Assembly: GCA_030390025.1 (NCBI GenBank)
Contig: CM059432.1
Span: 46,998,001 to 47,062,000, forward strand
DNA: 64,000 nt
Direction: 5' to 3'
Origin: Squalus acanthias
Lineage: Eukaryota
The notes beneath the pieces are model-generated. The model searched no databases and was not told the DNA's origin. It saw only the letters and a program-made list of their open reading frames with translations. Of this stretch, positions 4,547-63,887 are shown one piece after another. The translations under genes and the position numbers were made by a program. The first letter of the stretch is position 1. Each line of letters opens with the position of its first letter.

Positions 4547-5857
4547 GTAAGTTTAGAGGCAAAGAGCCAGTTTCGAATGGATTACGCAGCACGCATTAAT
4601 TAATCTACTATGGCATTTAATCATGGAAATTTATTAGCAATGTGTCCAGAGATAATGTAATTATTAATATGTACTAGTGTTCAGAGACTATAGTCTTGTG
4701 GAATCTTATTATGCGTTTATTTTCATCACACTAATTTTGATTTTTTAACATGATGTAGAAACAAAAGTAGCTGAGAATATTTCACAATGTTGGATTTTCA
4801 ATATTGGGAATGAAGTTTGAAGGACTAAATAGCCTTCCCTTACTTTATCAACCTCTTTTAGGGAATTGAATGAGTATGATCGAGTCCATAATAGAGTAGA
4901 TTATATATGGGTTTCAGAAGGAACAGACTTAATGAGCTAAATGGCCTTTTCTTATTCCGTGGCCTCACCTTTCCTCAGAAAGTGACTGGAGGATATGCAG
5001 TTTTGCACCGACACACAGAAAAATATAATTTTTATTCAGAAATGTGATGGTTTCAGTCAGCTGTTTGCTGAAGTTATTGGTATCTACTAAGAAAACACAT
5101 TATAAATAAGAAGTCACACAACACCTAGTTATTATAAATAGGAGCATTCACCCAAATAACAGTACGGCCAGTGTTTGATTTTCAGAAATGACAGGTAAAT
5201 TCTTGAGTCTTCCTGTTCCTCACTCTCACTTCCTGTTGTCATGCTTTAGTCATGCTTTGGTGACATTAATAATGCCTCTATGACATTTAATAATGCTTTA
5301 AGGGTAACAATAACACCTGTTTTTATTACTTTTAATAGCTAACACTGTAACACCTGTTATTAAATCCTCCCATTGAATCACTCAGCTCCACCTGCCAATT
5401 TATTTTTCTTCCATGATAAACACAATAAACACAATTCAAAGTGATTAACTGTGAGCAACATCATTGGAGATTCACTGGCAGCATTAAAATATTTTATATT
5501 TACATTTGACAAGAAGTATTTGCATCAAATTCCAAGACTGAATCACATTTGATCATAACACAAGTGTGACCCCGCTTCCCCTACCCCAAATAACCCCTCT
5601 CCGAGTCTGACTAAGCCTCTCAGTTCACCCCACCCCCACCCTATATGACTTCCCTTTACAAAGTTTGAATTCCATTGTCTGTGAAACTGTGTGAAGTCAG
5701 TCGGCCTCATGCAATGACAGGTAATCTGTGAGAGGCTATGGTACTTGCAATTGATGTTTGCGAACAAAGCAGCGGGACATCTCTATTATGTAATGTGAAT
5801 TTCTGGGTGGGAGGCTGGGTGGTGAGCATCTGGGACAGAGTCGGGAGGACTTGGGAC

Positions 5858-7462
5858 TGTAAGGGATACTCTCCTGACCCTGCGTGTCTCGTGGCCTGTG
5901 AGGTTCACGCGGCTCTGTGCAGCCTGTATGTCAGTGCGGGTCTAGGCCTGGTCTCCAGCCAGTCTGGGAACACTAGACACCCCTGTGAGTGGTTCGAATC
6001 ACTCTCCCTTACGGTTCTAGACACTGGACTTAGATGCGAGAGCAGTAATGGAGATAAAACTCATGTAGACTTGGTTTGAACGGTACGAAATGGAAAATCT
6101 TTATTGCATGATACTTAAAATTATGAAATACATGTCATATGCACAGATTAATGACAGTACAATCTTACAAACAGTTATAATCACTCTTAGGGAAACGAGG
6201 AACGACCAGCACAACGTAAATAGGGCACACATTACAAATATCCTTAAACTTTAAACCCTCCCCTATCAATAACTATCCTAAAACTAGCTTCGTAGGATCC
6301 CGAGACTCATGCTCACCACTCGTAATAACTCGGAGAAAATCCCGAATAGCTGATCGGATGTTTTTCACCGCAGCACCCACGTGTTGGTCAGGAGATCTCC
6401 TGGTCCCACTTGTTTACTGCTTCTGCTGCTCGGTCAGTCGGCTGGACCGTCCGCTGTAGTGAAGACCTCTGTTGGTTGGATACAGGGTATGGTGGAGCAC
6501 CGTTGTCAATATCGCTGATACGATGTGTTTGCACAGTCCAGTTATCATCGATGCAATATGTCTTGTTAAAGAAGAAAACTTCCTGTCGAGAAGACTTGGC
6601 TGATCGACCTACAGGCGCGGTCGGGATTTACTGACCGTGGCGATGGATAAGGTCTTCTTCTCTTCTCCTCTCATCTCATCTCATCTCATCTCATCTCATC
6701 CCGGGCCTTCGGTTCCGCTGCCAGCTACCAACATAGGTCTTTGCAACAGTCTTTTACCCAGGAGCAGCCACGATGATAACAGCAGCAAGCGGCAAGAGTC
6801 AAGAGCAAAAGAGCAAGAGTCACGAACACGAGGCAAGAGAGCGAATGGACGGTTTGGGCCTGCAATTATAGTGCACAGTTCTTCCGTTTCCCGCCCAACT
6901 ACAATGTCCATTCTTTTGTTTAAGGTTTGGCGCCCAAAAATGTCCTGTATGGGTGATCTCTGTCCTTAATGGGTTTCGGGGCTACTCCTGAATGTTTGAG
7001 TACCTGTTAATATTTCTCCCATTGTCAAATCGGTCGGTGTTCCCCCTGGAGGGGTTTGGGGCTTCCAAGTGTCCTGTATAACTACCTGCTAACGGCTCTC
7101 TCATCGTAGAGCCGTTGGGAGTTTACATATTAATGTCCTTTGGATGGGCCCTTGATGGCTTTCCTTTGTACCTGGGAGACCGATTCCAGTATCGATGTTT
7201 ATACTGTAAACCCATAATGTCCTGTGTATTGTCTTCACTGTGCTGAATCGTTATCGATCCTGCAAAAATGTTTATTGGAACGCCATCTTGTCTGCCTGCC
7301 GAAAAGTCTCGAATGTTCTGTCACGCGGTGCGGCGGCCATTTTACAGGCTGCTTGTGTCCAATTTAAACCTGACAGCATTCCGTTGAAATAAAAGCTGTT
7401 TTGAACGAAACTTGTGTTTTCTCCTTATTAAAAATGAAATCGCGATAATTGCGAATTCTACA
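5858..7462 (-). repeat. 3' LTR (1605 bp)
   Basis: Direct repeat of 16839-18443, preceded on the - strand by a polypurine tract. Confidence 0.95.
6100..6105 (-). terminator. Candidate proviral polyadenylation signal AATAAA (3' LTR; copy at 17081-17086)
   Basis: tttatt on the + strand, ~240 bp from the U5 end of the LTR. Confidence 0.55.
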
Positions 7463-7474
7463 GTCCCTCCTGTT
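7463..7474 (-). promoter_or_regulatory. Polypurine tract
   Basis: - strand AACAGGAGGGAC immediately before the TG of the 3' LTR. Confidence 0.7.
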
Positions 7475-7884
7475 GATGCGAATAACTCCGCTTATCGTAT
7501 CAAAAACTCAGTGGTGAGCAATCTTATCTCGATTTCACTCCGAATCCAGTAAATTAATCCCATAAAATTTTAACTTCACTAGGGTCTCTGTGTCGTCCTT
7601 ATTTCCCAAGAAAATCACACTTTATATCACCATAGGCATCATTTGCCCTTAAACTTACACCACTTGTTTTCCTTCCCGGCGTAACCAGGCCGATACCTCA
7701 CGCATCACCTGTATATTTATCTTTTATTCAGGGAAAGGAAAAACAAAACCAAAAACCCAACAATCAACACCATCACCAAAATAAACAAATCCCAACTCTT
7801 AAACATGTCGAGTTTCCAACGTATTTACACTGAGTACAAACTTCCGCGGCGCACGTGGCGAGCGGGAGTGACGCCATTTTCCCA

Positions 7885-10236
7885 TTACACTGCGCTCTCA
7901 TCGTGCACGCGCACGTAACGTTCTCGCCACTCTCCCGTGTTCTCATGCTTGGTGAGGCGCTTGTCTCTTTTACAATGTATGAACAAAAGGTATACTACAA
8001 TAAACACTTGACAGACGACTAAAATGTGGGAGGCTATTCTGACCCATGAGGGCACTTCAATATTCGTGAACAGATTCCACCACGGTGGAACCACTATGTC
8101 CAAAATGTCTGTACCTATCTCGACAGTTTTCTGCTCTAAGGTATAAAAATGCTTTTGTGACACCGCGACGGCTTTCAGAAGTTTGGTTAAATGCTCGGGG
8201 AGAGGGGGAATGAGGTACCCAAAATGTGCGACAAATCGCTGCAAGTCGGTACAATTCTCTTTTACTGTGAGATGAACAGTGGATGGTTCAGGGATTGGGA
8301 TAATTCGCTGTTGTGCTACTTGAACTTCAGCCCTGGGTTTAAAACAGAAACTGCTGTCACTCACCGGACACCGGCTACGGTTTCCATGCTGGTAGTGTTG
8401 CGCTGCAGTGGTAACACAATATGTTCCACCCCCGATGTATGCTACCTGCGGAGGCACATGATCTTGGGCCATTGCCTCCATGGTGCAATTCATGGACTTG
8501 GCGCCAGCCGTTCTGAACCCGCACTGTGGTGTTAAAAAGGCATTCAAGTGCTGGGGGCACAGTATTATGTGTGCTCCCCTGCCACGACAACCAGAGAGAT
8601 CTGTACCTGTCATCGTTTGCTCCCAGCGGATGACGTAAGGTGGAACCGCTGCATAACGAATGTGGGCTCCCCCCTGAATGACACCAATGTTCTCTACCCG
8701 ATACACCGGGGCGGGCTTTGCTGTGTTGCCCAAAACCGGCATGCGTAATACTATTCCCATAATAGTATGGTTTGAACGTCCGCAGTCCACGGGGACTGGG
8801 TAAGCTTCTGAAGCTAGCCTGAGCTGGCACGGACTTAATGCATTCTGAAAAGGGTGGAGCGCCCGCAGGTGTTTGTTACTTATCCAGGACGGGACCAAAC
8901 CTTGTTTTAAATCCTCCAAATTACTGCGGCCCTCGCCCAGTAACCACGCCCCGTAAAGCACGCACACCTCGTTCTGCGCAGCTTGATCGGATGCATTCCG
9001 ATCTTCCCTAATCAGGGCATTTACCGTACGCGCATGTTTCTCCAGCTCTGCTATAATCTCTTTTAAGTGTAGTGTCATGGCTTGGTCCTCGTGCAGACCC
9101 GACCCTACCACTTTATTCTCATCTGTAAGAATATCCTTTAACTGTGTTTTTAAACCATTAATCTGGGTCTGCAGCTCCACACTGTCTAGAGCGTTGACCA
9201 CAGATGTCCCTGTGTTAAAAGCAGTGAACGCATCGTTCACCAAACCCCTTCTTTGCCTCCCTACTTGGTCCAAAACTTCCTGCGGTGCGGTGTATAAACT
9301 TGTCTTATCGATTTCTGCAAAATCAAACTCGTAAAATTGCCTGAACATCTTGGTCAACAGGACCTGGTACAACTGTTCCGTCTTTTTGGGGCACCACTCT
9401 GGTAACCGTACCTCAGTGAGATTTAAAATCACCGAGGCCACCGCGTAATGTACCCCCTGAAATAGTATCTGGTCTGTGGGGACCAGTACCAAACCGTTCC
9501 CGGGTCCCTTACTAGTTTTAGGGCACCCTTCCTCTTCAGTTAGAACCACCGGAATCGTGGGCGGGGCTTTGCGTGGGCGCGTAATGAGCTCAGTGGCATT
9601 TACTGGGATCGGAGAGTATGGGGCTCCGCACCCCCTGGTGCTCGCATCCCACCTCATCCCCTGTCCGTTATCCTGCCACTGGTTAATAAAGAATATGGAG
9701 ATGCCTTTGGGGCAAACGTACTTTGACCCCCACATACAAACATAAATCCCCTCATCTGGTTCCCACCATTTGTCCCAACAGACTTTCACTTGTCCATCTG
9801 TCCCCGTAATTGTCCGATGGGTATTATTACCCAGTCGCTCCCACTCAACCGAAGAGTTCCTCATAGTTTTGCTCAGCTTTCGCAGCCACCACCATCGGCT
9901 CAATGGGACATTCCCACTGCAGGTCAAACAAATCCGTTTGCCGACGGTGACGCTGATCCTGGGTGCGATGATCCGTACTTTGGGGCACATTAAAGAAGTC
10001 TCTTTGTAGGCGAACCCCGATGTGCTGGAATACTCCGTTGAGTTCGTTCCCAGCCATCCTGGCCACCTTCCCTTGTGGAAATAGGTGCTGGTCCCTTCTG
10101 CCTTCCGTCTTCCGGTTCCATCCACCGCGATGGGGGCCGTGTCCCCGGAACATCCAAACACCACGACATCCTTGGTGAGGCCCCGATAGGCCAATCCACA
10201 TCCGATTGCCACGAGCAAAACTAGAAGTCGTTCCAT
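7885..10236 (-). CDS. env: Envelope glycoprotein (783 aa): signal peptide, Ig-like domain, RQRR furin site, class I F-like fusion subunit, TM anchor
   Basis: Hydrophobic N-terminus, RQRR|GLVNDAF, heptad repeats, Cys-rich region, C-terminal TM; splice acceptor (tctgatcacag) 13 nt upstream of the ATG. Confidence 0.85.
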   Translation of the reverse strand: MERLLVLLVAIGCGLAYRGLTKDVVVFGCSGDTAPIAVDGTGRRKAEGTSTYFHKGRWPGWLGTNSTEYSSTSGFAYKETSLMCPKVRIIAPRISVTVGKRICLTCSGNVPLSRWWWLRKLSKTMRNSSVEWERLGNNTHRTITGTDGQVKVCWDKWWEPDEGIYVCMWGSKYVCPKGISIFFINQWQDNGQGMRWDASTRGCGAPYSPIPVNATELITRPRKAPPTIPVVLTEEEGCPKTSKGPGNGLVLVPTDQILFQGVHYAVASVILNLTEVRLPEWCPKKTEQLYQVLLTKMFRQFYEFDFAEIDKTSLYTAPQEVLDQVGRQRRGLVNDAFTAFNTGTSVVNALDSVELQTQINGLKTQLKDILTDENKVVGSGLHEDQAMTLHLKEIIAELEKHARTVNALIREDRNASDQAAQNEVCVLYGAWLLGEGRSNLEDLKQGLVPSWISNKHLRALHPFQNALSPCQLRLASEAYPVPVDCGRSNHTIMGIVLRMPVLGNTAKPAPVYRVENIGVIQGGAHIRYAAVPPYVIRWEQTMTGTDLSGCRGRGAHIILCPQHLNAFLTPQCGFRTAGAKSMNCTMEAMAQDHVPPQVAYIGGGTYCVTTAAQHYQHGNRSRCPVSDSSFCFKPRAEVQVAQQRIIPIPEPSTVHLTVKENCTDLQRFVAHFGYLIPPLPEHLTKLLKAVAVSQKHFYTLEQKTVEIGTDILDIVVPPWWNLFTNIEVPSWVRIASHILVVCQVFIVVYLLFIHCKRDKRLTKHENTGEWRERYVRVHDESAV

Positions 10237-10519
10237 CCTTCCTTGGTTCCTGTGATCAGATAGAATGAGGTAGCCAGCCTCGCAAAAAGTCTCTGGCTTT
10301 TGTGAAGGGTGAGCGGGTCCCCTGACCTCGCCTCACGTAAACTTCAACGTTTGCTAAATAGACTTCCTCTAAACCTAGCCTTAAAACTCCCATCATTTTA
10401 TCGTTATCTGTTAAAACACTACAAACTTAAACTTATTAAAACTACTTAAAACTTTAAACTAAAACCTAAAACCTTAAACTAATAACTTTACAATGCCGCC
10501 CGTTCTCAGGGCGGCCCCT

Positions 10520-13500
10520 TTAAATCCTGAGAAGGCTGCTGCGAGCTCTTCCCGACGGTGGGAGGGCACTGACCCTTCCCTCTGATCTGCCGCAGCCTGT
10601 TGCTGCGCTGACCCTTTCCTCTGATCTGCCGCAGCCTGTTACTGCCTCGATGTGGCCTGTCTCTACCCGGGTTATCTTAACCTGAAACTTACGCCCTGGG
10701 GCAGCCTGTGGACCTGACCACGTCTTCCTGGGCTGGGGTACTCTGCTTGACCTACGGGGAATTGCTATGGGCGGGGGCTCCGTGACGGACGGACCGGGTC
10801 CCGAGACCTTCAACGGGATGACCTGGGGTTCCATCACAGGCGCCAGCCCCGCCTCCGCTGACTCCGCCTCCCTAACCTCGGGGCTGGCAGTTCGGGGCCC
10901 CGCCCTGCTCGGCCCAGCAGGCGGCCCTTCACTCGCGAACTCTGCCTCCCCTGAGGACTGGACGTTCAAAGCGGGCGGCCACACCTCTGGGAACCACATA
11001 GCGGCTGGCCCGGCCTCCTCTAGCTCCTTCCTCCTGCTGTCGGGACCTGCAGCTTGTGTGTCCACCCCGTATGGATCTCTACCTAGCGGCCCCAATCCTT
11101 CCAGACCGTTCCTCTGAAACCACCCGTCATCATCACTATGCTCATCTGCACTATCCTCATCTGACCAGGGTACCCTGGGGTCCTCGTCATCTAACCCCCA
11201 ACTCCAGAAAAACGCTGCATGATCGTCCGGGATGTCCCTTCCCCTGATGCAAGCTGCTACGCCTGCCTGTGTGCCTTGTGGTCCTACCTGGGGCTGTGTT
11301 TTCCCATTGGCGGGATTTACCCCTGTAGTTTTCCCTTGCGCACCCGGCTGGTACAGTTTACATTGGTTTATGTGGAACCACTTAGTGCGCCGAGGTACTT
11401 TTACGGCGTAAACCATGGGACTCGCCTTGTCTACAATGTTGTAGGGTCCCATATACAGTGGTTCCAGACTCCCTACTCTGGCGTAGTTTCTGACCATGAC
11501 CTGGTCTCCTACTTCCCACTCCCGCGTTTTGCGGGGTTCCAGCAACAAGCGATTGCCCTGGTGCTGCCTTCCCATGTTCCCAGCCGCCTGCTCATAAACT
11601 TGCTTCAGGCGCTCCAAGAGAGTTTGGGCGAACTTGTCCCTGCTGATCTCTTGAAGCTGACCCTCAGTGAGCACCGGGGCTAGCACATGGGTGGGGGTTC
11701 GCATGAGCCTGCCGGTCATTACCTCGTGCGGGGAGTACCCCGTACTTTTTGACTGACTGGCCCGGACCCCCATGAGGACTAAAGGCAGAACTTCCGCCCA
11801 TTTTTGGGGCGAGTTCCTAGTCTCTTTCCTCAATTTCTCCTTCAGGGTCCGGTTCATACGTTCAACAATCCCGGATGACTGGGGATTGTGTGCTACGTGC
11901 CACTTCCCTTCAATGCCCAAAAGCATGAGGGTGTTCTGCATCACCTGGCCGGTGAAATGACTCCCTTGGTCTGACTCCACGAAACGGGGGAGTCCCCACC
12001 GCGAGAACACTTCCCGGACCAAGATTTTTGCTGTACCCAGTGCCGTAGCTGTTCGACAAGGGAAGGCTTCCACCCACTTGGAAAACACATCCACCAGGAC
12101 GAGGCAGTACTTATAACCTCCCTGGGTGGTGGGCAGGGGTCCTATATAGTCGATCTGTATCGACTGCCATGGTCCCTCTACCCTTCTTACGTGTCCCATG
12201 GGCACCTTCCTTTTCTGGGGGTCTGGGTTGTTTGCAGCGCACACAAGACAGTTTGCACAGAACTCGCGGACTTGTTCCCTGAGCCCTGGCCACCATCCCG
12301 CTTGCTCTACCCGTTGCCAGGTAACCTCGGGCCCGGGGTGCCCTGCCCCTGGTCCCTCGTGAGCCAACTGGAGGAATTCCCTCCTGTGCTGCTGCGGCAC
12401 AACCCACTGCTCCTCGCGGAACAGCATGCCTTCCTTTACTGAGAGGGTTGCCGTACTGTACGGACCTTCTACCTGCCTCCCCTCAGCAATCGTTTTTAGG
12501 ACTGCTTTTAGGGCGGGATCCTGGGCTTGGACGGTCTTGAGGTCTAGGGGCAATGCTACCCTGGTGTTCCCGGTATTCCCGTCCCCACCTCGGACCGCTG
12601 CTATGGGTCCGGTTCTATAGGGGTTCCAGAAAGTACCGTCGCGGGCACCCTCCCTGGCTAGCGCATCCGCCTGCCGGTTGCCCTCCCCACGGGGCTCTGT
12701 GGAGGAGTGAGCTTTCACCTTATGGATGAAAATCTCCCCTTCCTCCCCTACTGCTGCTGCTAAGATCTTCTCCAGCAAGGGCTTTACCGTTAAAGGTCGC
12801 CCGTCCGCGGAGGTGTATCCACGGCGGGACCAAATGGCCAGGTATTCCGTACACGAATTGCAGGTGAACATACTGTCCGAGCAAATCGTGTATGGGGTTG
12901 GGAAAATGTCTGGGTGGGTTACCACGTACACCACGGCAGACAGCTCAGCCTGCTGCGCGCTCATGGTGCTAGGGAGCTTGATCGCCAGGGCAAGGTCTGC
13001 CGCAGGGTCATAAACTCCACACCCTGTGAGTCGCTCGCCAGCAGATACTGTGCTAGACCCATCAACATAAATCTCGCGCCCAGTGGGATGTATCCCGGCC
13101 CGTAAACCTATGTTGACTTCCCACACCCCCTCCACCGAACACCGGTGGGCTGTACCGGGGTATACCAAATTGGCCGCAAGCCTGGGCTCGCAAAGACCTT
13201 TTACTCTGATGTCCAACTGGGAGAGAAGAAGGGTCCAACGCGCAATGCGTGCGCTGCTTACGGTCCCGTCTTTAATCCTCCCATCCAGAAGCATCTTAGT
13301 TGGTGTGTGATGTGTGAGGAGAGTGATGGGAGAGAGCCCTGTGAAGATCGCTGATCTTTTCACAGCCCAATGCGTGGCTAAAAGGTGCCTTTCGCAATTG
13401 GAAAAACTTCTCTCCACATCCGTTAATACCCTGGATGAATAGACAACCGGCCTTAGCTTGCCGTGACGCTCTTGGAGCAGCACGGCGCTTAAGCTGTCTC

Positions 13501-15022
13501 CGCTGGCAGCTACCTCCAGGAAAAACTCCTTCCCCCCATCTATGGCCCCTAAGGCTGGCGCGGTCTGCAGATCTCTTTTTAACTTCTCGAAGGCTGCTTG
13601 GCAGCCCTCGTCCCAAAGCCACTCTACTCCCTTATGGAGGAGTCGGAGGAGCGGCGCCGCTGTGGCCGCATAATCCTCGATAAAATCCCTGCAGTAACCG
13701 GTCAGTCCCAAGAAGGACCTCACACCCCTTACGTTGTTGGGAATCGGTAATTCTTGTACCGACTCCCTCCTTGCTTTGTCTATGGCTCTTTCCCCAGCGC
13801 GTAGGGTCAGTCCCAGGAATTTTACTTCCTGCTGACCGATACGTGCTTTCTTTGGGTTTACTTTAAAACCCTTTCTCGCTAACAGCTCCAATAACTCGTC
13901 CAGCAGTGGTCCGTGCTCCTCCCTTGAGTCCGTAAATAGGAGCAAATCATCCACATACTGTACTATCTGATTGGGCTGACTAAACTCCTTTAAACTTCCT
14001 GCCATACACTGGTGAAAAATACTGGGGCTATTGTGGAAACCTTGTGGCAAGCAGTTCCACGTGTACTGTTGCCCTTTAAACGTAAAGGCAAACTTGTACT
14101 GGTCCTCTCGCCGCAGCGGGATGGACCAAAAACCGTTCGAGATATCCAGCACCGTGAACGTGGTCGCGGACGCTGGGATGCTCCCTATTAGGTCAGCAAC
14201 TGCTGCTACTGTGGGCGCGCAGGCGGGGATGTTACTGTTAAGGACTCTGTAGTCCACCGTGGCTCTCCACGAATTATCCGGCTTCCTAACCGGCCATAAT
14301 GGGGAGTTCACGTGTGTGGCTATCGGCCTCAACACGCCCTGCTGCACCAAGGAAGACATTGCTGCCTCCATATCGGGTTCTGCTTCTTTGGGGAAGTTAT
14401 ACTGCTTTTGGGGTCGGGTCATGGGGTCCCCATCTACGCTGACCTCAAACCCGACCACCCTCCCACAATCGTGCTTGTGGGTTGCAAACGCGTGCATATT
14501 ATCTGTCACGTACGTTTGCATGTCCGTTGGGACATCTGCGACCATAAGCCTGAGGTCGTAGCCTCCGGATGGCTGTACGGTACACAGGACCCCTGTTTCT
14601 TCCTCCCCTTGAATTACCATTACCTCGCCTTTTTCCCCTTTAGCCCCCCAGAGACAGTGATTTCTGAGGTCCACGAGGATCCCGTGTCCCGCTAGCAGAT
14701 CGGACCCGAGAATACCTCTTCCACCCCCCTTTTGCCATGCCATTAGTATACACTTCCACTTAAGGCGAAGTGTCCCTAAACGAATGGATAGCGGGAGGGA
14801 AAATGTGCCAGCCTGTTCTTTCCCTGTGAACCCTGCTAGCGTGAATGGGACCTTGGTAGATAGCGGCGAGTCAAAAGGGTCATCTGTATGGATTATGGTG
14901 CAAGAAGCTCCCGTGTCCAACAAATAACTGCCCTTTTGTTTCTCTACCTCCATCTCCACCACAGGTCGCCTCCACGCATCATAGCTGAGCGGACACAGGT
15001 AGACGGGCTGTGCTGGTTCTAG
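10520..15022 (-). CDS. pol: Pol (PR-RT-tether-RNase H-IN plus C-terminal extension), in frame with gag after a single TGA
   Basis: LLDTGAS protease; LPQGF and YVDD RT; YVDGSS/AQQAEL/SDS/GNRQAD RNase H; HHCC, QIDY/SDQG/VER DDE integrase; GPY motif. Confidence 0.95.
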   Translation of the reverse strand, partial: LEPAQPVYLCPLSYDAWRRPVVEMEVEKQKGSYLLDTGASCTIIHTDDPFDSPLSTKVPFTLAGFTGKEQAGTFSLPLSIRLGTLRLKWKCILMAWQKGGGRGILGSDLLAGHGILVDLRNHCLWGAKGEKGEVMVIQGEEETGVLCTVQPSGGYDLRLMVADVPTDMQTYVTDNMHAFATHKHDCGRVVGFEVSVDGDPMTRPQKQYNFPKEAEPDMEAAMSSLVQQGVLRPIATHVNSPLWPVRKPDNSWRATVDYRVLNSNIPACAPTVAAVADLIGSIPASATTFTVLDISNGFWSIPLRREDQYKFAFTFKGQQYTWNCLPQGFHNSPSIFHQCMAGSLKEFSQPNQIVQYVDDLLLFTDSREEHGPLLDELLELLARKGFKVNPKKARIGQQEVKFLGLTLRAGERAIDKARRESVQELPIPNNVRGVRSFLGLTGYCRDFIEDYAATAAPLLRLLHKGVEWLWDEGCQAAFEKLKRDLQTAPALGAIDGGKEFFLEVAASGDSLSAVLLQERHGKLRPVVYSSRVLTDVERSFSNCERHLLATHWAVKRSAIFTGLSPITLLTHHTPTKMLLDGRIKDGTVSSARIARWTLLLSQLDIRVKGLCEPRLAANLVYPGTAHRCSVEGVWEVNIGLRAGIHPTGREIYVDGSSTVSAGERLTGCGVYDPAADLALAIKLPSTMSAQQAELSAVVYVVTHPDIFPTPYTICSDSMFTCNSCTEYLAIWSRRGYTSADGRPLTVKPLLEKILAAAVGEEGEIFIHKVKAHSSTEPRGEGNRQADALAREGARDGTFWNPYRTGPIAAVRGGDGNTGNTRVALPLDLKTVQAQDPALKAVLKTIAEGRQVEGPYSTATLSVKEGMLFREEQWVVPQQHRREFLQLAHEGPGAGHPGPEVTWQRVEQAGWWPGLREQVREFCANCLVCAANNPDPQKRKVPMGHVRRVEGPWQSIQIDYIGPLPTTQGGYKYCLVLVDVFSKWVEAFPCRTATALGTAKILVREVFSRWGLPRFVESDQGSHFTGQVMQNTLMLLGIEGKWHVAHNPQSSGIVERMNRTLKEKLRKETRNSPQKWAEVLPLVLMGVRASQSKSTGYSPHEVMTGRLMRTPTHVLAPVLTEGQLQEISRDKFAQTLLERLKQVYEQAAGNMGRQHQGNRLLLEPRKTREWEVGDQVMVRNYARVGSLEPLYMGPYNIVDKASPMVYAVKVPRRTKWFHINQCKLYQPGAQGKTTGVNPANGKTQPQVGPQGTQAGVAACIRGRDIPDDHAAFFWSWGLDDEDPRVPWSDEDSADEHSDDDGWFQRNGLEGLGPLGRDPYGVDTQAAGPDSRRKELEEAGPAAMWFPEVWPPALNVQSSGEAEFASEGPPAGPSRAGPRTASPEVREAESAEAGLAPVMEPQVIPLKVSGPGPSVTEPPPIAIPRRSSRVPQPRKTWSGPQAAPGRKFQVKITRVETGHIEAVTGCGRSEERVSAATGCGRSEGRVSALPPSGRARSSLLRI

Positions 15023-16834
15023 TCATGGGGCACTATTAGACGGTCCTGCGGCACCTACGGGGCCGGTTGCGACCGCCACCTGTCCACGCGCATTCAAAAC
15101 CATCTTGCGCATGACTCCTAACACTGCCTCGAGGTCTTCGGGAGAGGTGGGTGCCTTTGCTTCCTTAGCCGGGACAGGCGCCTGGGCTCGGACCGCGGGA
15201 TTTTTATCCTTGGAATCCTTCCAAGGGTTCCTGCAGTGCTTGCGCCAGTGCCCTGTCTTCCCACACCCGTAACAGGCATTACTTGCCTGTGGGGCGCGAT
15301 TACCCTCCTGATGCCACTCTCTTTGAGCCGGGGCTGCGGGTCGTACCTCATGTACTCTTCCCTTAAAGGGACGTGTTGCCATACCCCTTATGTTACGGTA
15401 ACCTAACGTGAGTCGATTCAAGACCGACTCTTCCGTAAGGTTGAGGTCATTGGGATCGAACCAGGCTTTTGCCTGCTCTCTAACGGCTGGTAAACTGTTG
15501 GCTATTATGCACCTAAGCCAATGAATTAAAGCGGCGCCTTCCACATCTTCGCGCTCGGGCGCACCTAGACAGCTGCGCTCATATACTGGCCACAGCCTGT
15601 CGGCAAAAACCTTCGGGGGTTCTCCCTCCATCTGCACTGTCTGTCCCACTCTAGCAAACGGACCTCCGTCGTTCGCTCCCACTACTTCTAGGACCTCATT
15701 TTTCAATTCCTCATAACTTTTATTACCCCTCTTGCTATCGCCTGAGAGACACTGAAGGACCGAGCTATCTAATGAGAACAGCAGCATTTTTGCTGTCTCC
15801 CCATCATCGCAGCCGTTGATGGCTGCGGCTTGCTCAACTTCCCTAAAATGTACGGAAGGGTCGTCTATCTCGGTCAGCTTCCTTACGTGGTTTATCATAG
15901 CCCTCAGCTGATGTGAACTGTGAGGCAACACCAGCTGTCCGAGGAGATCCCCCGGTTCTTCCCCACCGTTCCTGCTTGGGCCCCTTTTAATCCCCGTTAC
16001 TGGATACAACGATCCCTTTTCTACTTCCTTTTCAACGGGCTCTTTTGTTTCTTCCGTTGCTTCCTCCCTAACCCAGGTTTCTGAATAGCTGGGTGGCGCG
16101 GAGGGCGCAGTGGCTACTACTTCTTCCGCTTTACATGGTGGGGAATTTCTAAATCTCTCATTTACTAGCGGCTGGCGTGCCGACGGATTAATAAGGCACA
16201 CCATGCCGTTCGCATTATTCACGGCCTTTTTGAGGCTCTCTATCTCTTTTTCGCAGGCGCTATGGTCGGCTCCCTGAAACTTATCCTCAAGGGCCAACTT
16301 ATACGCCGACCTAACCCCCATTAAGCTCTCTTCTTGAGTTCTTATCTGGGCAGCTTGACGGTTACATCTTTCCTTCATCCTACTCTCGTTTAATTTTGCT
16401 TCAGTGATCTGGCACTCGAGATACTCTACCCTTGTTTTAAGGTAGCTGGAGACTTCCTGGCTTTCCTGGCGTAACTCATTTAAACTCTTAATGAGCGCCT
16501 CCCCTCCAGAAACCTTCTCCTCCATTTCCTCCTCTAACTGCTTGATTCGAGCGGTTAGCGCTGTATTGGTCTGGTTTGAAATCTGAACCTGCCTTTTGTA
16601 GCACATAAGCCAGACTGCTTTCTCAACTGCCTTTTTATGCTCCTTACTATCCGTCCACCTTTCAGCTGCCTCTAATGGGCTCTTATCCGCTAACAGTTCG
16701 CTTATCCACTTTTTCGTTAGATTAACCTTTCCAAATACGTAATCCGCTATCTTTTCCTGCATCACATTTCGTACAGTCATTCCAAAATCTAACACACTAC
16801 CCTCTCGCTGCCAGTGTCCTGCCGCGGTCGCCAT
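15023..16834 (-). CDS. gag: Gag (603 aa): N-terminal coiled coil, PSAP/PPSY late domains, capsid-like region, CCHC zinc knuckle
   Basis: CYGCGKTGHWRKHC (15233-15274), APSAPPSY, position between PBS and pol. Confidence 0.9.
   Translation of the reverse strand: MATAAGHWQREGSVLDFGMTVRNVMQEKIADYVFGKVNLTKKWISELLADKSPLEAAERWTDSKEHKKAVEKAVWLMCYKRQVQISNQTNTALTARIKQLEEEMEEKVSGGEALIKSLNELRQESQEVSSYLKTRVEYLECQITEAKLNESRMKERCNRQAAQIRTQEESLMGVRSAYKLALEDKFQGADHSACEKEIESLKKAVNNANGMVCLINPSARQPLVNERFRNSPPCKAEEVVATAPSAPPSYSETWVREEATEETKEPVEKEVEKGSLYPVTGIKRGPSRNGGEEPGDLLGQLVLPHSSHQLRAMINHVRKLTEIDDPSVHFREVEQAAAINGCDDGETAKMLLFSLDSSVLQCLSGDSKRGNKSYEELKNEVLEVVGANDGGPFARVGQTVQMEGEPPKVFADRLWPVYERSCLGAPEREDVEGAALIHWLRCIIANSLPAVREQAKAWFDPNDLNLTEESVLNRLTLGYRNIRGMATRPFKGRVHEVRPAAPAQREWHQEGNRAPQASNACYGCGKTGHWRKHCRNPWKDSKDKNPAVRAQAPVPAKEAKAPTSPEDLEAVLGVMRKMVLNARGQVAVATGPVGAAGPSNSAP
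16816..16833 (-). promoter_or_regulatory. Primer-binding site, complementary to the tRNA-Arg(TCG) 3' end
   Basis: - strand TGGCGACCGCGGCAGGAC, 5 nt after the 5' LTR; complement of the vertebrate tRNA-Arg(TCG) end GTCCTGCCGCGGTCG-CCA (tRNA sequence recalled). Confidence 0.8.
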
Positions 16835-16838
16835 TTTC

Positions 16839-18443
16839 TGTAAGGGATACTCTCCTGACCCTGCGTGTCTCGTGGCCTGTGAGGTTCACGCGGCTCTGTG
16901 CAGCCTGTATGTCAGTGCGGGTCTAGGCCTGGTCTCCAGCCAGTCTGGGAACACTAGACACCCCTGTGAGTGGTTCGAATCACTCTCCCTTACGGTTCTA
17001 GACACTGGACTTAGATGCGAGAGCAGTAATGGAGATAAAACTCATGTAGACTTGGTTTGAACGGTACGAAATGGAAAATCTTTATTGCATGATACTTAAA
17101 ATTATGAAATACATGTCATATGCACAGATTAATGACAGTACAATCTTACAAACAGTTATAATCACTCTTAGGGAAACGAGGAACGACCAGCACAACGTAA
17201 ATAGGGCACACATTACAAATATCCTTAAACTTTAAACCCTCCCCTATCAATAACTATCCTAAAACTAGCTTCGTAGGATCCCGAGACTCATGCTCACCAC
17301 TCGTAATAACTCGGAGAAAATCCCGAATAGCTGATCGGATGTTTTTCACCGCAGCACCCACGTGTTGGTCAGGAGATCTCCTGGTCCCACTTGTTTACTG
17401 CTTCTGCTGCTCGGTCAGTCGGCTGGACCGTCCGCTGTAGTGAAGACCTCTGTTGGTTGGATACAGGGTATGGTGGAGCACCGTTGTCAATATCGCTGAT
17501 ACGATGTGTTTGCACAGTCCAGTTATCATCGATGCAATATGTCTTGTTAAAGAAGAAAACTTCCTGTCGAGAAGACTTGGCTGATCGACCTACAGGCGCG
17601 GTCGGGATTTACTGACCGTGGCGATGGATAAGGTCTTCTTCTCTTCTCCTCTCATCTCATCTCATCTCATCTCATCTCATCCCGGGCCTTCGGTTCCGCT
17701 GCCAGCTACCAACATAGGTCTTTGCAACAGTCTTTTACCCAGGAGCAGCCACGATGATAACAGCAGCAAGCGGCAAGAGTCAAGAGCAAAAGAGCAAGAG
17801 TCACGAACACGAGGCAAGAGAGCGAATGGACGGTTTGGGCCTGCAATTATAGTGCACAGTTCTTCCGTTTCCCGCCCAACTACAATGTCCATTCTTTTGT
17901 TTAAGGTTTGGCGCCCAAAAATGTCCTGTATGGGTGATCTCTGTCCTTAATGGGTTTCGGGGCTACTCCTGAATGTTTGAGTACCTGTTAATATTTCTCC
18001 CATTGTCAAATCGGTCGGTGTTCCCCCTGGAGGGGTTTGGGGCTTCCAAGTGTCCTGTATAACTACCTGCTAACGGCTCTCTCATCGTAGAGCCGTTGGG
18101 AGTTTACATATTAATGTCCTTTGGATGGGCCCTTGATGGCTTTCCTTTGTACCTGGGAGACCGATTCCAGTATCGATGTTTATACTGTAAACCCATAATG
18201 TCCTGTGTATTGTCTTCACTGTGCTGAATCGTTATCGATCCTGCAAAAATGTTTATTGGAACGCCATCTTGTCTGCCTGCCGAAAAGTCTCGAATGTTCT
18301 GTCACGCGGTGCGGCGGCCATTTTACAGGCTGCTTGTGTCCAATTTAAACCTGACAGCATTCCGTTGAAATAAAAGCTGTTTTGAACGAAACTTGTGTTT
18401 TCTCCTTATTAAAAATGAAATCGCGATAATTGCGAATTCTACA
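16839..18443 (-). repeat. 5' LTR (1605 bp)
   Basis: Direct repeat of 5858-7462 at offset 10981, TG..CA ends, followed by the PBS. Confidence 0.95.
17846..17852 (-). promoter_or_regulatory. Candidate LTR TATA box (TATAATT); YY1-like motifs further upstream in U3
   Basis: - strand cacTATAATTgcag; CGCCATCTTG and GCGGCCATTTT motifs near 18262-18325. Confidence 0.4.
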
Positions 18444-18510
18444 GGACAGAGGCCTAGAAATTGCAGTACGCTGGAAACCTCCCGGTAACCATGCAGGCCA
18501 AGGCTAATGG

Positions 18511-27284: not shown

Positions 27285-30200
27285 CATAAGAACATAAGAA
27301 ATAGGAGCAGGAGTAGGCCATTTGGCCCCTCGAACCTGCTCCGCCATTCAATAAGATCATGGCTGATCCGATCTTGACCTCAACTCCACTTTCCCGCCTG
27401 CTCCCCATAACCCTTGACTCCCCTGTAGCTCAAATATCTGTCTATCGCCACCTTGAATATATTCAATGACTCCGCCTCCACAGCTCTCTGGGGTAGAGAA
27501 TTCCAAAGATTCACGACCCTCTGAGAGAAGAAATTCCTCCTCATCTCCGTTTTAAATGGGTGACCCCCTATTCTGAAATATGCCTCCTAGTTCTAGATTC
27601 CCCCACGAGGGGAAACATCCTCCCTGCATCTACGCTGTCAAGCCCCCTCAGAATCTTATATGTTTCAATAAGTTCACCTCGATTCTTCTAAACTCCAATG
27701 AGTATAGGCCCAACCTTTCTTCATAAGACAACCCCTTCATCTCAGGAATCAAACTAGTGAACCTTCTCTGAACTGCCTCCAATGCAAGTATATCCCTCCC
27801 TAAATAAGGAGACCAAAACTGGACACAGTACTCCAGATGTGGTCTCACCAGTGCCCTGTACAGTTGTAGCAAGACTTCCCTACTTTTATACTCCATCCCC
27901 CTTATAGGGGCCAACATTCCATTTGCCTTCCTAGTTACTTGCTGTACCTGCATGCTAACTTTTTGTGTTCCATGTACGAGGACCCCTAGATCCCTCTGTA
28001 CCACAGCATTTTGTAGTCTCCATTTAAATAATAATTTGCTTTTTTATTCTTCCTACCAAAGTGGATAACTTCACATTTTCCCACATTATACTCCATCTGC
28101 CAAATTTTTGCCCACTCACTTAATCTATCTATATCCCTTTGCAGACTCCTGGGGCGGGATCTTGCCAGCCTTGGGGAGGCGGGTATGGAGGCGGGACTGC
28201 CATCTTGCCAGGAGGCGGGTAGCCGTCCCACGCCGGGTCCTGTCTCCTTGGAGGCGGGATGGGATTACAGCCACTTAACTGCCTGTTAACAGGTAGTTAA
28301 CAGGCAGAAAATAGGCTTATCACCATTTTGCCCACACAAGTGCGGGCTTCCCGAAGGCTCCAAACCCCGCCATGGTCACCGAGGCGAGTAGTGGGTCTGC
28401 GGGGGTCGGAGGGGTGCAAAAGTGTGCTGTAGAGGTAAGTGATGGGTGCAAGTGTGGAGAGGTGAGTATCTGAGATAAGTGCAAAGTGTTAGAAAAAGTG
28501 TACTTACCTTTGTTTCTTCTTGTAGGTTTCAGTCGGTTTGTATGCGGAGAGTCTTACACCTCCGCGGTAGAGATGACAGATGGCCGTTGCATTCTCCAAT
28601 GCAACAACCATCTAATTTCTGCAAAAGAAAGAGGTTTGATGAGGTGTTGAATTCAAGACCTCATCAAACTACAGAGAATGTCAGTGTTTGACAGCTTCAC
28701 AGAGCTGTCAAACTATGACAATTCATCTGTCAAAAGTTTTTGACAGATGAAACATCATACGTTGACGTTCTCTGCAATCGGCTTTCCCTTAATTGGCCTG
28801 CTAAGCCCGCTGGGCGGGCTTAACAAGGTCAATCAAGGGAAAATAGCGTGAGTTGGCCAGAAGTTGATGGAGGCGGGACTGAAACCCGACAAGTGGGAGT
28901 CCCGCCTCCAAAAGCTCCCCATTGGCAAAATCACCCACTTGTGTCTTCTTCACAGCTTGCTTTCCCATCTATCTTTGTATCAACAGCAAATTTGGCTACA
29001 GTACACTCGGTCCCTTCATCCAAGTCATTAATATAGATTGTAAATAGTTGAGGCCCTAGCACTGATCCCTGTGGCACCCCACTAGTTACAGTTTGCCAAC
29101 CTGAAAATGACCCATTTATCCCGACTCTATGTTTTCTGTTAGTTGGCCAATACACTATCCATGCTAATATATTAACCCCAACCCCGTGAACTCTTATCTT
29201 GTGCAGTAACCTTTTATATGGCACCTTATCGAATGCCTTCTGGAAATCCAAATACACTACATCTACTGGTTCCCCTTTATCCACCCTGCTCGTTACATCC
29301 TCAAAGAACTCTAGTAAATTTGTCAAACACAATTTCCCTTTCATAAAACCATGTTGACTCTGTTTGATTGTATTATGATTTTCTAAATGTCCTGCTATTA
29401 CTTCCTTAATAATGGATTCCAGCATTTTCCCAATGACAGATGTTAGGCTAACTGGCCTATAGTTTCCTGCTTTCTGTCTCCCTTCTTTCTTGAATAGGGG
29501 CGTTACATTTGCGGTTTTCCAATCCGCTGGGACCTCTCCAGAATCCAAGGAATTTTGGTAGATTACAACCAACGCATCCACTATCTCTGCAGCCACTTCT
29601 TTTAAGACTCTAGGATGCATGCCATCAGGTCCAGGGGACTTGTTGTCCTTTAGTCCCATAAGTTTGCCTCGTACTTTTTCTCTAATGATAGTGATTGTTT
29701 TAAGTTCCTCCCTCCCTATAGCCCCTTGATTATCAATTATTATTGGAATGTTTTTAGTGTCTTCTACCGTGAAGACCGATACAAAATATTTGTGTAAAGT
29801 CTCTGCCATTTCCCTGTTTCCCATTATTAATTCCCCAGTCTCATCCTCTAAGGGACCAACGTTTACTTTAGCTACTCTCTTCCTTTTTATATATCTTTAG
29901 AAGCTCTGTCTGTTTTTATATTTTTTGTTAGTTTACTCTCATAATCTATCTTCTCCCTCTTTATTATTTTTTTAGTCATCCTTTGCTGCTTTCTCAAAAT
30001 TTCCCAATCCTCTGGCCTACCACTAATCTTCGCAACATTGTATGCCTTTTCTTTCAATTTGATACCATCCTTAATTTCCTTAGGTTAGCCACGGATGGTT
30101 CATCCTTCTCGTAGTCTTTCTTTCTCACTGGAATAAACCTTTGCTGAGAGTTATGAAATATCTCCTTAAATGTCTGCCACTGCTTATCTACCGTCTTACC

Positions 30201-48846: not shown

Positions 48847-50615
48847 CTTCTTCTTAGGCAGTCCCTCGGAACCGAGAATGACTTGCTTCCACATTAAAAA
48901 TGAGTTCTCAGGTGACTGATGAGTCCAATGCGGGACCTACAGTCTCTGTCACAGGTGGGGCAGACGGTGGTTGAAGGGGAGGGTGGGTGGGGTGCTTGGG
49001 TTGACGTGCGCTCCTTGCACTGTTTGCGCTTGGCTTCCGCTTGCTCCTAGCAAAGAGACTCGAAGTGTTCGGCGCCTTCCTGGATGCTTCTCCTCCACTT
49101 TGTGCAGCCTTGGGCCAGGGATTCGATGGGGATGTTGCACTTTTTCAAGGAGGCTTTGAGGGTGTCCTTGAAGCGTTTCCTCTGCCCACATGGGGCTCTC
49201 TTGCCGTGTCGGAGCTCCGAGTAGAGCGCTTGTTTTGGGAGTCTCGTATTGGGCATGCGGACGATGTGACCCATCCATCGGAGCTGATCAAGCGTGGTCA
49301 AAGCTTCGATGCTGGGGATGTTGGCCTGAGCGAGAACACTGATGTTGGTGCACCTATCCTGCCAATAGATTTGCAGGATCTTGCGGAGACAGCATTGGTG
49401 GTACCTCTCCAGTGCTTTTAGGTGCCTGCTGTAAATGGTCCATGTCTCTGAGGCATACAGGAGGGCGGGTTTCACTACTGCTCTGTAGACCATGAGCTTG
49501 GTGCCGGGTTTGAGGTCCTGGTCTTCAAACACTCTCTTCCTCAGGCGACCAAAGGCTGCACTGGCACACTGAAGGCAGTGTTGGACTTCGTCATCGATGT
49601 CTGCCCTTGTTGACAGTAGGCTCCCAAGGTATGGAAAGTGGTCCACGTTGTCCAAGGCCTTCTTGTGGATTTTGAAAATCGGGGGGCAGTACTGTGTGGC
49701 GGGGGCAGGTTGGTAGAGGACCTTTGTCTTACGGATGTTTAGTGTAAGGCCCATGCTCTCGTACGCTTCGGTGAAGGTGTTGACGATGGTTTGGAGTTCG
49801 ACCTCAGAGTGTGCGCAGACGCAAGCATCGTCTGCATACTGTAATTCGACAACAGAGGATGGGACGACCTTGGATCTGGACTGGAGGCGGTGGAGGTTGA
49901 ACAGTTTCCCGTTTGTTCTGTAAATTAGCTCCACTCCAGCGGGGAGCTTATTGAGGGTGAGATGGAGCATTGCAGCAAGGAAGATCGAGAAGAGCATTGG
50001 TGCGATGACACAGCCTTGCTTGACCCCGGTCCGTACGTGAATTGGGTCTGTGGTGGAACCATTGGTCAGGATCACGGCTTGCATGTTGTCATGAAGCAGG
50101 CGAAGGATGGTGACAAACTTTTGAGGGCAGCCAAATTTGAGGAGGACACTCCATAATCCCTCACGGTTGACAGTGTCGAAGGCCTTTGTGAGGTCAAAGA
50201 AGGCTATCTATAACGGTTGGTGCTGTTCCCTGCATTTCTCTTGTAATTGACGCATGATGAAGATCGTGTCCATTGTGCCCCTTAGTGGGCGGAATCCACA
50301 TTGCAACTCTGGGAGGAGCTCCTCAGCCACCGGGAGAAGGCGATTGAGGAGGATTCTTGCAATGACTTTCCCTGTGGCAGACATCAGGGAAACTCCTCTG
50401 TAATTACCGCAATCGGACTTGTCACCTTTCTTGAAGATGGTCACAATTATGGCATCTCTGAGATCCCCCGGCATGCTCTCCTCCTTCCAGATAAGAGAAA
50501 TTAGTTCATGAATTTGCTCCAGTAGTGCTTCTCCGCCATGCTTTAGTGCCTCGGCAGGGATTCCATCTGTTCCTGAGGCCTTGTTGTTCTTCAGTTGCTG
50601 GATGGCCTTTTCAAC
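48847..50615 (-). mobile_element. 5'-truncated RTE-clade LINE (RT domain)
   Basis: GVKQGCVIAP, LQYADD, FPYLGS; (AAG)n tail; ~60-bp flanking duplication. Confidence 0.85.
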
Positions 50616-56890: not shown

Positions 56891-57537
56891 TCATGATGCG
56901 GAGATGCCGGTGTTGGACTGGGGTGGACAAAATTGAGAGGTCGCACAACACCAGGTTATAGTCCAACAGTTTTATTTTAAATCACAAGCTTTCGGAGTTA
57001 CAACTCCTTCGTCGGGTGAAGTGAGGAGATACAGAATCGTCAAAGCATATATAGATAGAGAACAATGCATGTGTAACTTACAATTGCAGACAACTAAATT
57101 CAATCATCCTGACTGTTTATCTGCCGAGGTGTGATAAAGTTAATCAGGTCAGCCAGGAAGGTACCACATCAAAGACATAGCAAGATACAACTGAGACAAT
57201 GAGGTGGAGTCGCATGGGGGGTCTAACGCTTTTGACACGTTAGACCCCCCATGCGACTCCACCTCATTGTCTCAGTTGTATCTTGCTATGTCTTTGATGT
57301 GGTACCTTCCTGGCTGACCTGATTAACTTTATCACACCTCGGCAGATAAACAGTCAGGATGATTGAATTTAGTTGTCTGCAATTGTAAGTTACACATGCA
57401 TTGTTCTCTATCTATATATGCTTTGACGATTCTGTATCTCCTCACTTCACCCGACGAAGGAGTTGTAACTCCGAAAGCTTGTGATTTAAAATAAAACTGT
57501 TGGACTATAACCTGGTGTTGTGCGACCTCTCAATTTT
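56891..57537. mobile_element. Penelope-like element remnant forming a 300-bp-arm inverted repeat, with hammerhead-like motifs
   Basis: Arms 56929-57228 and 57238-57537, 38-bp tail on one side, TSD ATAAATAGAGG, nested in CR1. Confidence 0.75.
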
Positions 57538-60533: not shown

Positions 60534-61278
60534 GTAAATACACTTTGATTATTGGTTTAATATCGGAACTAAATTTTTATGGACTGTTTGTGTTAAATTT
60601 AACTCAAGTTGTAGGTGTAAATCTCATCCATTTTTTCTTTTATGGGTCTTTAGAATGTGTCTGGATTGCCAAAACTTGGTAAGATCTGTAAACCATAATT
60701 CAACATGTATAAAGTTTGACTGTCTTGAATAAAATGGAATACATGGTGCTACATCATTAGACTGTTAGGGGTAAAAATTCAGTTGGTTGCGCCTCCCGTT
60801 AGCGCCTTAAGAGGGCGCTAATGGGGCGCAAAGCCGCTAACGCCCGGGCGCAGCGATGTTTGCGCCGCTCGGGAACTTAACTAGAGATTGTGCGGCAGCG
60901 CTAAACTTTACCGCTGCGACCACCTGCGCGCGCAGATTGTGACGTCATTCCATGGTACAACGCCCTTGTGGCGCCCCGGAGCGGAAATTGAGTGGCGCCC
61001 CCTGCCTTACCGCCTGGCGCATCCAACGACCGGAAGACTGGAACGCTATCAATCGCTGTGGGGCTGGGGTGGGCGCTATTTAAAGGGGGCCTCTTCCTGT
61101 CTTTTTCTGTGGTTGACATTTTTGCACCACTCGTTCTGAGAGAGAGAGAGAGATTCGGAGAGAGAGAAAGAGAGACTTCTGCATTGACTCAACGCTTTGT
61201 GAGGTAGTTTTGCCTACTGATCCTAACTTCGCTAGTACTTTAGTTGCTGTCCTTCATTACTTTGCTTGCAAAGAGACT

Positions 61279-62439
61279 ATGGGGGCTGCACTGATTGGGG
61301 GCGTCGTCCTGCTCCAGCTGAATCGGAGGACACAGAGACGCAGAGAGAGAGTGGCAATGATGGCCAGACGGAGGAGGGCCAACAGGCGTATGTACAGGAG
61401 AGCTTACCCTCCCAGGGTATATCGTGAACAGCTCTCCTACATTCATATGTCTGAGGAGCTGTGTTTGCGAAGGCTGCGATTCAGCAAGGAGGTGGTCACT
61501 GAGCTCTGCCACCTGCTGCAGCCAGATCTGCAGCCTCAACTGAGGTCCAGGACGTCTCTGTCGGTGGCAGTGAAGGTCACAGTGGCTCTCAACTTCTACG
61601 CTACTGGCTCATTTCAAGCTGCTGCTGGGGACCTCGCCAATATCTCCCAGTTCGCGGTGCATTGCTGCATCCGGCAGGTCACAAATGCCCTCTTTAAAAG
61701 GAGACGAGAGTTCATCTCTTTCCCCATGACCCCAGACAAGCAGCGTGACCGCGCTCTGGGCTTTGCGAGGATAGCGGGCTTCCCCATGGTGCAGGGCGCC
61801 ATTGACTGCACGCATGTGGCTTTGCGTGCTCCGCATGAGAATGCCGAGGAATTCCGGAACAGAAAGGGGTTCTATTCCTTGAATGTTCAGTTGGTCTGTG
61901 ACCACAGACAGCTGATACTCGCTGTCAATGCCCACTATCCTGGCAGCTGCCACGATGCTTTTATCCTGCGCCAGACTACTGTGGCAGAACTTTTCGAGGC
62001 ACCGCATCAGCCAGTTGGTTGGCTTCTCGGGGACAAGGGGTATGCATTGAGCACCTGGCTGATGACACCGCTCCGTACGCCGAACACCCCTGCTGAGCTG
62101 CGGTACAATGAGAGCCATCAAGCTACCAGGAACATAATTGAGCGCACAATCGGCGTGCTGAAGCAACGGTTCCGCTGTCTCGACCATTCTGGAGGAGCCC
62201 TGCAGTACTCGCCTGAGCGAGTATCCAACTTCGTAGTTGTGTGCTGCATGTTGCATAACATGGCAATCGTCAGGACCCAGCCAATGCCACCAGGCCTTGG
62301 AGCACCACCAGAGGAGGAGGAGGAAGAGGAGGAAGAGGACGAGGAGGATGATCATCAGCAGCACCAAGGCGGGAGGGCGGCCCACAATGGTGAAACTGCA
62401 AGGGCCGTCCGTCAACGGCTAATAGCAAGCCGCTTCTAG
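61279..62439 (+). CDS. Harbinger transposase (HARBI1-like DDE nuclease)
   Basis: GAIDCTHV, FRNRKGFYSLNVQLVCD, PGSCHDAFIL, LLGDKGY, RNIIERTIGVLKQRFRCL; intact ORF; TATTTAAA at 61077. Confidence 0.92.
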   Translation: MGAALIGGVVLLQLNRRTQRRRERVAMMARRRRANRRMYRRAYPPRVYREQLSYIHMSEELCLRRLRFSKEVVTELCHLLQPDLQPQLRSRTSLSVAVKVTVALNFYATGSFQAAAGDLANISQFAVHCCIRQVTNALFKRRREFISFPMTPDKQRDRALGFARIAGFPMVQGAIDCTHVALRAPHENAEEFRNRKGFYSLNVQLVCDHRQLILAVNAHYPGSCHDAFILRQTTVAELFEAPHQPVGWLLGDKGYALSTWLMTPLRTPNTPAELRYNESHQATRNIIERTIGVLKQRFRCLDHSGGALQYSPERVSNFVVVCCMLHNMAIVRTQPMPPGLGAPPEEEEEEEEEDEEDDHQQHQGGRAAHNGETARAVRQRLIASRF

Positions 62440-62751
62440 GGCCCCTGCTGTGGAAATGGCTTCTGCCATTGCTAACAACATCAATGAACCCAGCACGCAA
62501 CCCCTAAGCCGGCCAAGGCACCAATAATTCCAAACAACAACCATGTATATTTTGAATACAGAAACTTATTTATTTTACAAACTCTGTGTGTGTCAATTTC
62601 TCATGACAAACTCATAGAAATAAACACAAAAAAACAGTCAATAACATAACTGGTTCTCACAACCTGGAGATAATGTCCAAAACACTAAACAAAAGTTGGA
62701 CCATGAACCTCGACCTTTAATAAAAAAATGACCAGCATTTTGTCACACCTC

Positions 62752-63728: not shown

Positions 63729-63887
63729 CTGAAAGCAGGGAGGTACAAGAGTGGCTTTAGCGTGAGGACAGGGTGGCAGTAAGGGAGGAATAAGTGCAGC
63801 GAGTTAGCAAGTTGGATTGAAAGTGTCAAAGGCTGGTGTTGTGAGGGACAAGTGGAAGGACAGAGGACAAAAAGGTGATGACCTTAC

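Follow-up and report, generated by a model that had tools for sequence, protein, structure and literature searches.

The heptanucleotide UGACUAG is a leaky stop signal known from experiment (PMC13517186, PMC9841425), with readthrough of about 1.5–17% in UGA_CUAG genes (PMC9841425) and with RNA structure only conditionally required for UGACUA (PMC13517186). Among retroviruses, in-frame UGA junctions between gag and pol have been published for SSSV (UGAAGA), ZFERV (UGACGA) and RMEV (UGAAGU) (PMC13517186), and TGA readthrough was proposed for the class III endogenous retrovirus (ERV) XtERV-S by its authors (PMC8278194); a 2026 review treats epsilonretroviral readthrough, and the readthrough cis-elements of fish retroviruses and of unclassified ones, as still unverified (PMC13517186). 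Here we describe the gag–pol junction of an intact provirus on the minus strand of a 64,000-nucleotide stretch of Squalus acanthias DNA (assembly GCA_030390025.1, contig CM059432.1, positions 46,998,001 to 47,062,000; hereafter the window), a junction that probably operates by programmed type II (UGA-CUAG) stop-codon readthrough.

The gag–pol junction

The end of gag reads GCC CCA TGA CTA GAA, with the TGA at 15025-15023 on the minus strand (a strand that an earlier note on this DNA had left unstated), and the gag frame (16885-15023) abuts the pol frame (15022-10520) in the same reading frame. Counted from the ATG at 16834, gag encodes 603 amino acids, so that readthrough would give a Gag-Pol of 603+1+1500 = 2104 amino acids, bearing out the earlier note's figure of about 2104 and its reading of the gag end. 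The hexanucleotide that marks a type II site (UGACUA or UGACGG) is present, and the downstream frame is open and coding, here across the whole 1500-codon pol frame from the stop onward. The note's lead-in of 20 sense codons holds as far as the open frame goes, but that stretch ends at a GTG (14962), one of the GTG codons at 21–22, and the first ATG past the stop is pol codon 24 (14953), inside the protease. CTAG makes up 21 of the 9375 4-mers (0.22%) of the internal region, and being in frame would come about by chance one time in three. Both pol and env end in TAA, with different letters around it, and no slippery heptamer occurs from -300 to +60.

The stop position recurs in related Gags. 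When C-terminal distance is counted from a shared A-T-G/T-T-G residue motif, the close relatives with a complete C-terminus, seven proteins of three other lineages, all stop no more than one codon away from where the window's Gag stops: 12 residues follow the motif in the window and in the skate proteins P0124, P0127 and P0128, and 13 in P0125, P0129 and P0130 and in P0131. These lineages are 35–51% identical to the window's Gag (51% for P0124, 35% for P0125 and 46% for P0131 as representatives). Left out of the count were P0126, whose early end consists of unrelated sequence, and the majority of further matches, which are fragments short of the C-terminus; the distant Gags P0140, P0146 and P0150 (25–27%) also stop soon after the knuckle region, where they are unaligned. 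As regards the conservation that the earlier note proposed to check, the position of the stop is thus kept in 7/7 close Gags, in a comparison of proteins and not of TGA-CTAG letters.

The protease appears to begin ahead of any ATG. Pfam protease models start at pol codons 17 and 22, as weak matches (E 9.5e-4 and 3.6e-4, both below the models' own cut-offs), and pol codons 9–23 resemble a coelacanth relative, P0008, at an equal distance from the DTG. Because the protease begins before the first ATG, ribosomes must come into Pol from a point upstream, whether through readthrough or on a spliced RNA. Many relatives' Pol models start at a methionine inside the protease. A search among longer proteins, in itself weak evidence, found no fused Gag-Pol, and no relative was found among viral contigs. 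Contigs from four sequencing runs cover the bin holding the stop (depth 165, 42, 319 and 24), with no listed piece bridging the stop itself; none of the 40 differences listed, beside 459 more unlisted, falls within 14937-15097.

The earlier note's proposal of readthrough is in this way supported indirectly, by the known leaky motif, by the conserved stop position and by a protease lying upstream of the first ATG, all of which, like the shared frame, are read directly from the sequence. In the mechanism that we infer from them, ribosomes would translate gag from unspliced RNA and most would terminate at the UGA, giving the 603-residue Gag. For a minority of ribosomes, the CUAG 3′ context would weaken termination and a near-cognate tRNA would read the UGA, whatever the rate and the amino acid put in may be, and perhaps with a contribution from the 3′ hairpins. 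Translation would then run on into protease, reverse transcriptase (RT), ribonuclease H (RNase H) and integrase to yield the 2104-residue Gag-Pol, rare readthrough setting a high Gag:Pol ratio and packaging Pol.

Table 1. Features of the provirus and of its gag–pol junction; offsets take the U of the UGA as +1
Feature	Position	Strand	Details
5′ long terminal repeat (LTR)	16839..18443	-	1605 bp, TG...CA ends
Primer-binding site (PBS)-like stretch	16817..16833	-	5 nt past LTR, overlaps gag start codon
gag	15023..16834	-	603 amino acids; coiled-coil N-half, putative capsid-like middle, single CCHC knuckle; TGA end
UGA-CUAG readthrough-type stop context	15019..15025	-	From sequence; motif per PMC13517186, PMC9841425
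Predicted hairpin 1	14956..15016	-	+10 to +70; pair probabilities about 0.7-0.85
Predicted hairpin 2	14858..14955	-	+71 to +168; over protease active-site codons
pol frame	10520..15022	-	1500 codons; protease (DTG codon 36), RT, tether, RNase H, integrase, tail
env	7885..10236	-	783 amino acids; signal-like start, weak Ig-like domain, RQRR cleavage-like site, C-terminal hydrophobic segment
3′ LTR	5858..7462	-	1605 bp
Target-site duplication	5854-5857 and 18444-18447		4 bp, GGAC on +; flanks provirus

Counter-evidence and other routes to Pol

Several observations weigh against readthrough, the first of them structural. The hairpin nearest the stop is ordinary (z -1.26), being equalled in stability by 55 of 500 dinucleotide shuffles and by 47 of 1000 synonymous controls and ranking 73 of 222 windows, and the junction window is outscored by a pol window that lies far away from the stop; the most structured pol window starts at 11692. 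In favour of readthrough stands the junction-proximal part of pol, which as a whole is strongly folded in prediction: its first 171 nt fold better than 300/300 synonymous-codon controls (rank 2 of 49 windows), and an 80-nt window from 14942, in hairpin 2, ranks 2 of 222 with z -4.05. The z of -3.35 for 160 nt is owed mainly to this second hairpin, not to the one beside the stop. Folding the downstream 150 nt or so, as the earlier note suggested, therefore gives predicted structure that offers readthrough mixed support. In a crude stem scan the sole crossing stems were possible ones in competition with the predicted hairpins, and Rfam gave nothing relevant. The gammaretroviral type III arrangement, UAG-G with an H-type pseudoknot at +12, is not what is found here, the stop being UGA-C.

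The remaining counter-evidence concerns the junction itself. The close relatives are known as proteins only, so what is conserved is the position of the stop, not its codon or the CUAG. Ten of 24 lokiretrovirus consensus sequences are annotated with one fused gag–pol gene, which implies that not every virus in this neighbourhood has a stop there. In Candida Tca2, yeast reporters carrying just the gag-UGA-pol junction showed no readthrough (PMC2194720), an indication that junction anatomy can mislead, and the translation of a Gag-Pol from this provirus is a prediction from its sequence.

Pol might instead be translated from its own spliced messenger RNA, foamy-virus style, with an upstream exon giving the start codon. 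This seems improbable. The element is of spuma-related grade, with foamy and murine leukaemia virus RTs scoring alike; a donor-like site at 17297 lies in its leader, as do several upstream ATGs; and an AG at 14985, at codon 12/13 just ahead of the protease model starts, is preceded by 12/17 pyrimidines and so scores level with the likely env acceptor at 10250. However, eight AGs (15055 to 15008, and 14970) are ordinary, with 7–9 of 17 pyrimidines, and splicing would require neither the shared gag/pol frame nor the leaky CUAG context; in spumaviruses gag and pol do not share a frame (PMC8278194). None of three listed contig joints enters the start of pol, though contigs cannot reveal an absence of splicing.

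An independent start just past the stop, by reinitiation, internal entry or a promoter at the junction, is less probable again, although the GTG codons at 21–22 and the ATG at 24 are on hand. The first protease strand is needed and would be removed by initiation at codons 21–24, and a free Pol would presumably be left without a Gag packaging handle. A minor junction promoter does exist in Tca2 (PMC2194720).

The earlier note had also named a copy-specific nonsense mutation as the outcome that would overturn its proposal, the stop then being private to this copy of a single gag–pol frame. Such a mutation is very unlikely and is largely refuted: seven related Gags in three other lineages stop at most one codon away, the identical LTRs point to a very young insertion, and the stop stands in a known leaky motif, with a background frequency of 0.22%. 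On the other side stand the fused lokiretroviral genes and P0008, a coelacanth gene model that passes from capsid to protease without a stop, although gene models can splice over stops. Scarcely credible is a selenocysteine at the UGA, which is indeed the selenocysteine codon: a search of 5800-18500 that admitted matches with E up to 5 found no selenocysteine insertion sequence (SECIS) family, its 3 matches being unrelated and below gathering score, and the CUAG context already accounts for leakiness.

The provirus, its envelope and its placement

The provirus is complete, spanning 5858-18443 on the minus strand with three long open frames, gag, pol and env. Its two LTRs are 100% identical, with 0 mismatches across a 1607-bp match, and because they are identical the insertion appears very young. 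Of the 24 sequencing runs listed, 20 (8 coded organisms and 2 unlabelled), with no RNA run among these 20, share 54–74% of the words of 14000-16000; near-identical sequence across runs of eight coded organisms suggests a recently active, multi-species family. By an eye count, 13 of 17 letters of the PBS-like stretch agree with the XtERV-S PBS. Only 4 nt separate the gag ATG from the 5′ LTR, and the ATG falls partly within the PBS-like sequence (16817-16838, minus strand); the Gag relatives P0125, P0137 and P0143 likewise start MATAAG; from this shared start and the overlap it follows that the PBS is apparently dual-coding, with the entire leader lying within the LTR. Gag itself has no Pfam match over the cut-off. 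The Pol tail, about 270 residues past the integrase C-terminal domain (10520-11300, minus strand), is acidic and then proline/arginine-rich, of low complexity and without a Pfam match.

Env is probably an F-type fusion protein by sequence, a lead that stands without confirmation from Pfam or from a fold. Its Atlas features match Baculo_F (0.92) and Fusion_gly (0.91) clusters, and the whole-Env Atlas match (0.84) is unnamed. Env has no Pfam PF00523 match, an N-terminal Ig_3 match is weak (E 0.11, below the cut-off), a PDB sequence search returned nothing under E 1, and the single-sequence fold, with a predicted local distance difference test score (pLDDT) of 32.6, is too low to use. An F-like Env has been described for lokiretroviruses and not for canonical retroviruses (PMC9040795), and the literature searched yielded no snakehead retrovirus (SnRV) with an F-type Env. 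An F-type Env beside a canonical-type RT is possibly the element's more surprising feature.

The closest named Pol relatives are frog and coelacanth proteins (40–41%), and for Gag a skate protein (51%), relatives that by themselves suggest a host among the cartilaginous fishes. Two Pol relatives were labelled by motif match to the supplement of the lokiretrovirus paper, P0015 as Loki-like and P0020 as SnRV-like (PMC7947760). The element's RT is 44% identical to that of P0020 and carries the motif LPQGF, as against CPFG(Y) in lokiretroviruses. A quick RT tree groups it with the SnRV-like row (Shimodaira–Hasegawa-like approximate likelihood-ratio test, SH-aLRT, 90), a grouping that the careful tree leaves unresolved: there, among 27 rows chosen from 118 RT rows and including one Loki-like row (P0015), the element sits at the unresolved base of the canonical retroviruses, apart from P0015 (93/95). 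The approximately unbiased (AU) test does not reject a joint clade with P0015 (p-AU 0.128), and P0015 is a better match than P0020 for tether and integrase, with RT the reverse. A first identification as a lokiretrovirus was dropped on the RT motif and the trees, although the AU test does not reject it. Judged by RT sequence, the element is best filed as a deep-branching ERV of class III/SnRV grade and not as a lokiretrovirus. Its dual RNase H (tether plus RNase H) is common to all retroviruses. Nor does it have the marks of Spumaretrovirinae, since its gag and pol share a frame and its Gag has one CCHC knuckle; the spumaretrovirus Gag is not known to carry a CCHC knuckle.

Elsewhere in the window, a perfect inverted repeat of at least 300 nt with 9 nt between its arms (56929-57537) may be an assembly artefact or a foldback. 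At 61117-63756, a DDE_Tnp_4 transposase frame on the plus strand (E 1.5e-39) faces a 334-residue frame on the minus strand, in what we take to be probably a Harbinger-type DNA transposon. RT fragments in dispersed repeats at 28931-29896 and 49047-50207 (minus strand) are probably decayed LINEs.

Junctions of this kind in other retroviruses

The same junction can be found in published sequences. In the lokiretrovirus supplement, TGA CTA GG ends gag in frame with the protease, frames being judged by eye, in Loki-Ofa, -Cne, -Pyo and -Sau (PMC7947760). Four of the 17 TGACTAG matches in that supplement lie at junctions and 13 elsewhere, so UGA-CUAG junctions occur in at least 4 of the 14 consensus sequences with a separate pol gene, line-broken motifs being missed by the count. 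TGA CTA G also occurs in a defective bullfrog ERV-S at the site homologous to the XtERV-S stop (supplement 5 of PMC8278194); the three TGACTAG matches in supplement 3 of that paper all lie away from the junction.

UGA at a retroviral junction is already known, and the full CUAG motif there apparently went unremarked in print. No UGA-CUAG retroviral junction is listed in the available part of the 2026 review (PMC13517186); the terms 'readthrough' and 'stop codon' are absent from the available main text of PMC7947760 and from PMC9040795; and the available text of the XtERV-S paper does not mention the CUAG motif (PMC8278194). No statement of the full junction was found in the literature searched, which left out most subscription papers and the original SnRV report. 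The earlier note's 'different recoding solution in this lineage' therefore overstates the novelty, UGA junctions having been published and UGA-CUAG occurring also in lokiretroviruses and the bullfrog ERV-S; and the gamma- and epsilonretroviruses with which it compared the element give way, as the proper comparison, to deep-branching class III/SnRV-like viruses.

A broader reading is tentative, and we hold it to be rather doubtful: UGA-C(UAG) readthrough may be an old or repeatedly re-used route to Pol among the most deeply branching retroviruses (lokiretroviruses, class III ERV-S and SnRV-like fish ERVs), predating the gammaretroviral UAG-plus-pseudoknot, and the element, with its canonical-type RT and its Loki-like tether, integrase, F-type Env and junction, may belong to a lineage, so far undescribed, that links lokiretroviruses with canonical retroviruses. 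As a class, the mechanism is textbook knowledge. The recurrence of the junction in lokiretroviruses and ERV-S bears on the mode of recoding used by early retroviruses and suggests that their Pol is split or cut short in automated annotation; the intact element offers a short, directly testable readthrough site.

Set against known systems, the stop context is identical to that of the alphaviruses Sindbis virus (SINV) and o'nyong-nyong virus (ONNV) and of mammalian UGA_CUAG genes (PMC13517186, PMC9841425), and the hairpin predicted here starts at +10, close to the +9 to +16 given for alphavirus stem-loops (PMC13517186). Unlike those sites, this one lies at a retroviral gag–pol junction, and any stimulation by its structure is hypothetical. 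XtERV-S and bullfrog ERV-S share an in-frame UGA between gag and pol and a similar PBS, but XtERV-S differs in its UGA-CAG-G context and class I env (PMC8278194). SnRV, whose row in the lokiretrovirus paper's alignment has motifs equal to those of the SnRV-like P0020 (PMC7947760), likewise holds gag and pol in one frame (PMC1224870) but joins them by UAGGGC (PMC13517186), and lineage I of the elephant-shark CmiERV has an in-frame UGA-CAU-G (PMC4422223). [quoted passage not shown] Lokiretroviruses share UGA-CUAG in at least four consensus sequences, a probable F-type Env and a well-kept tether, and where relatives of the element are named NYNRIN-like, the lokiretroviral integrase has been linked to CGIN1; their RT motif differs, and the Chondrichthyes row of the same paper counts 0 lokiretroviruses (PMC7947760).

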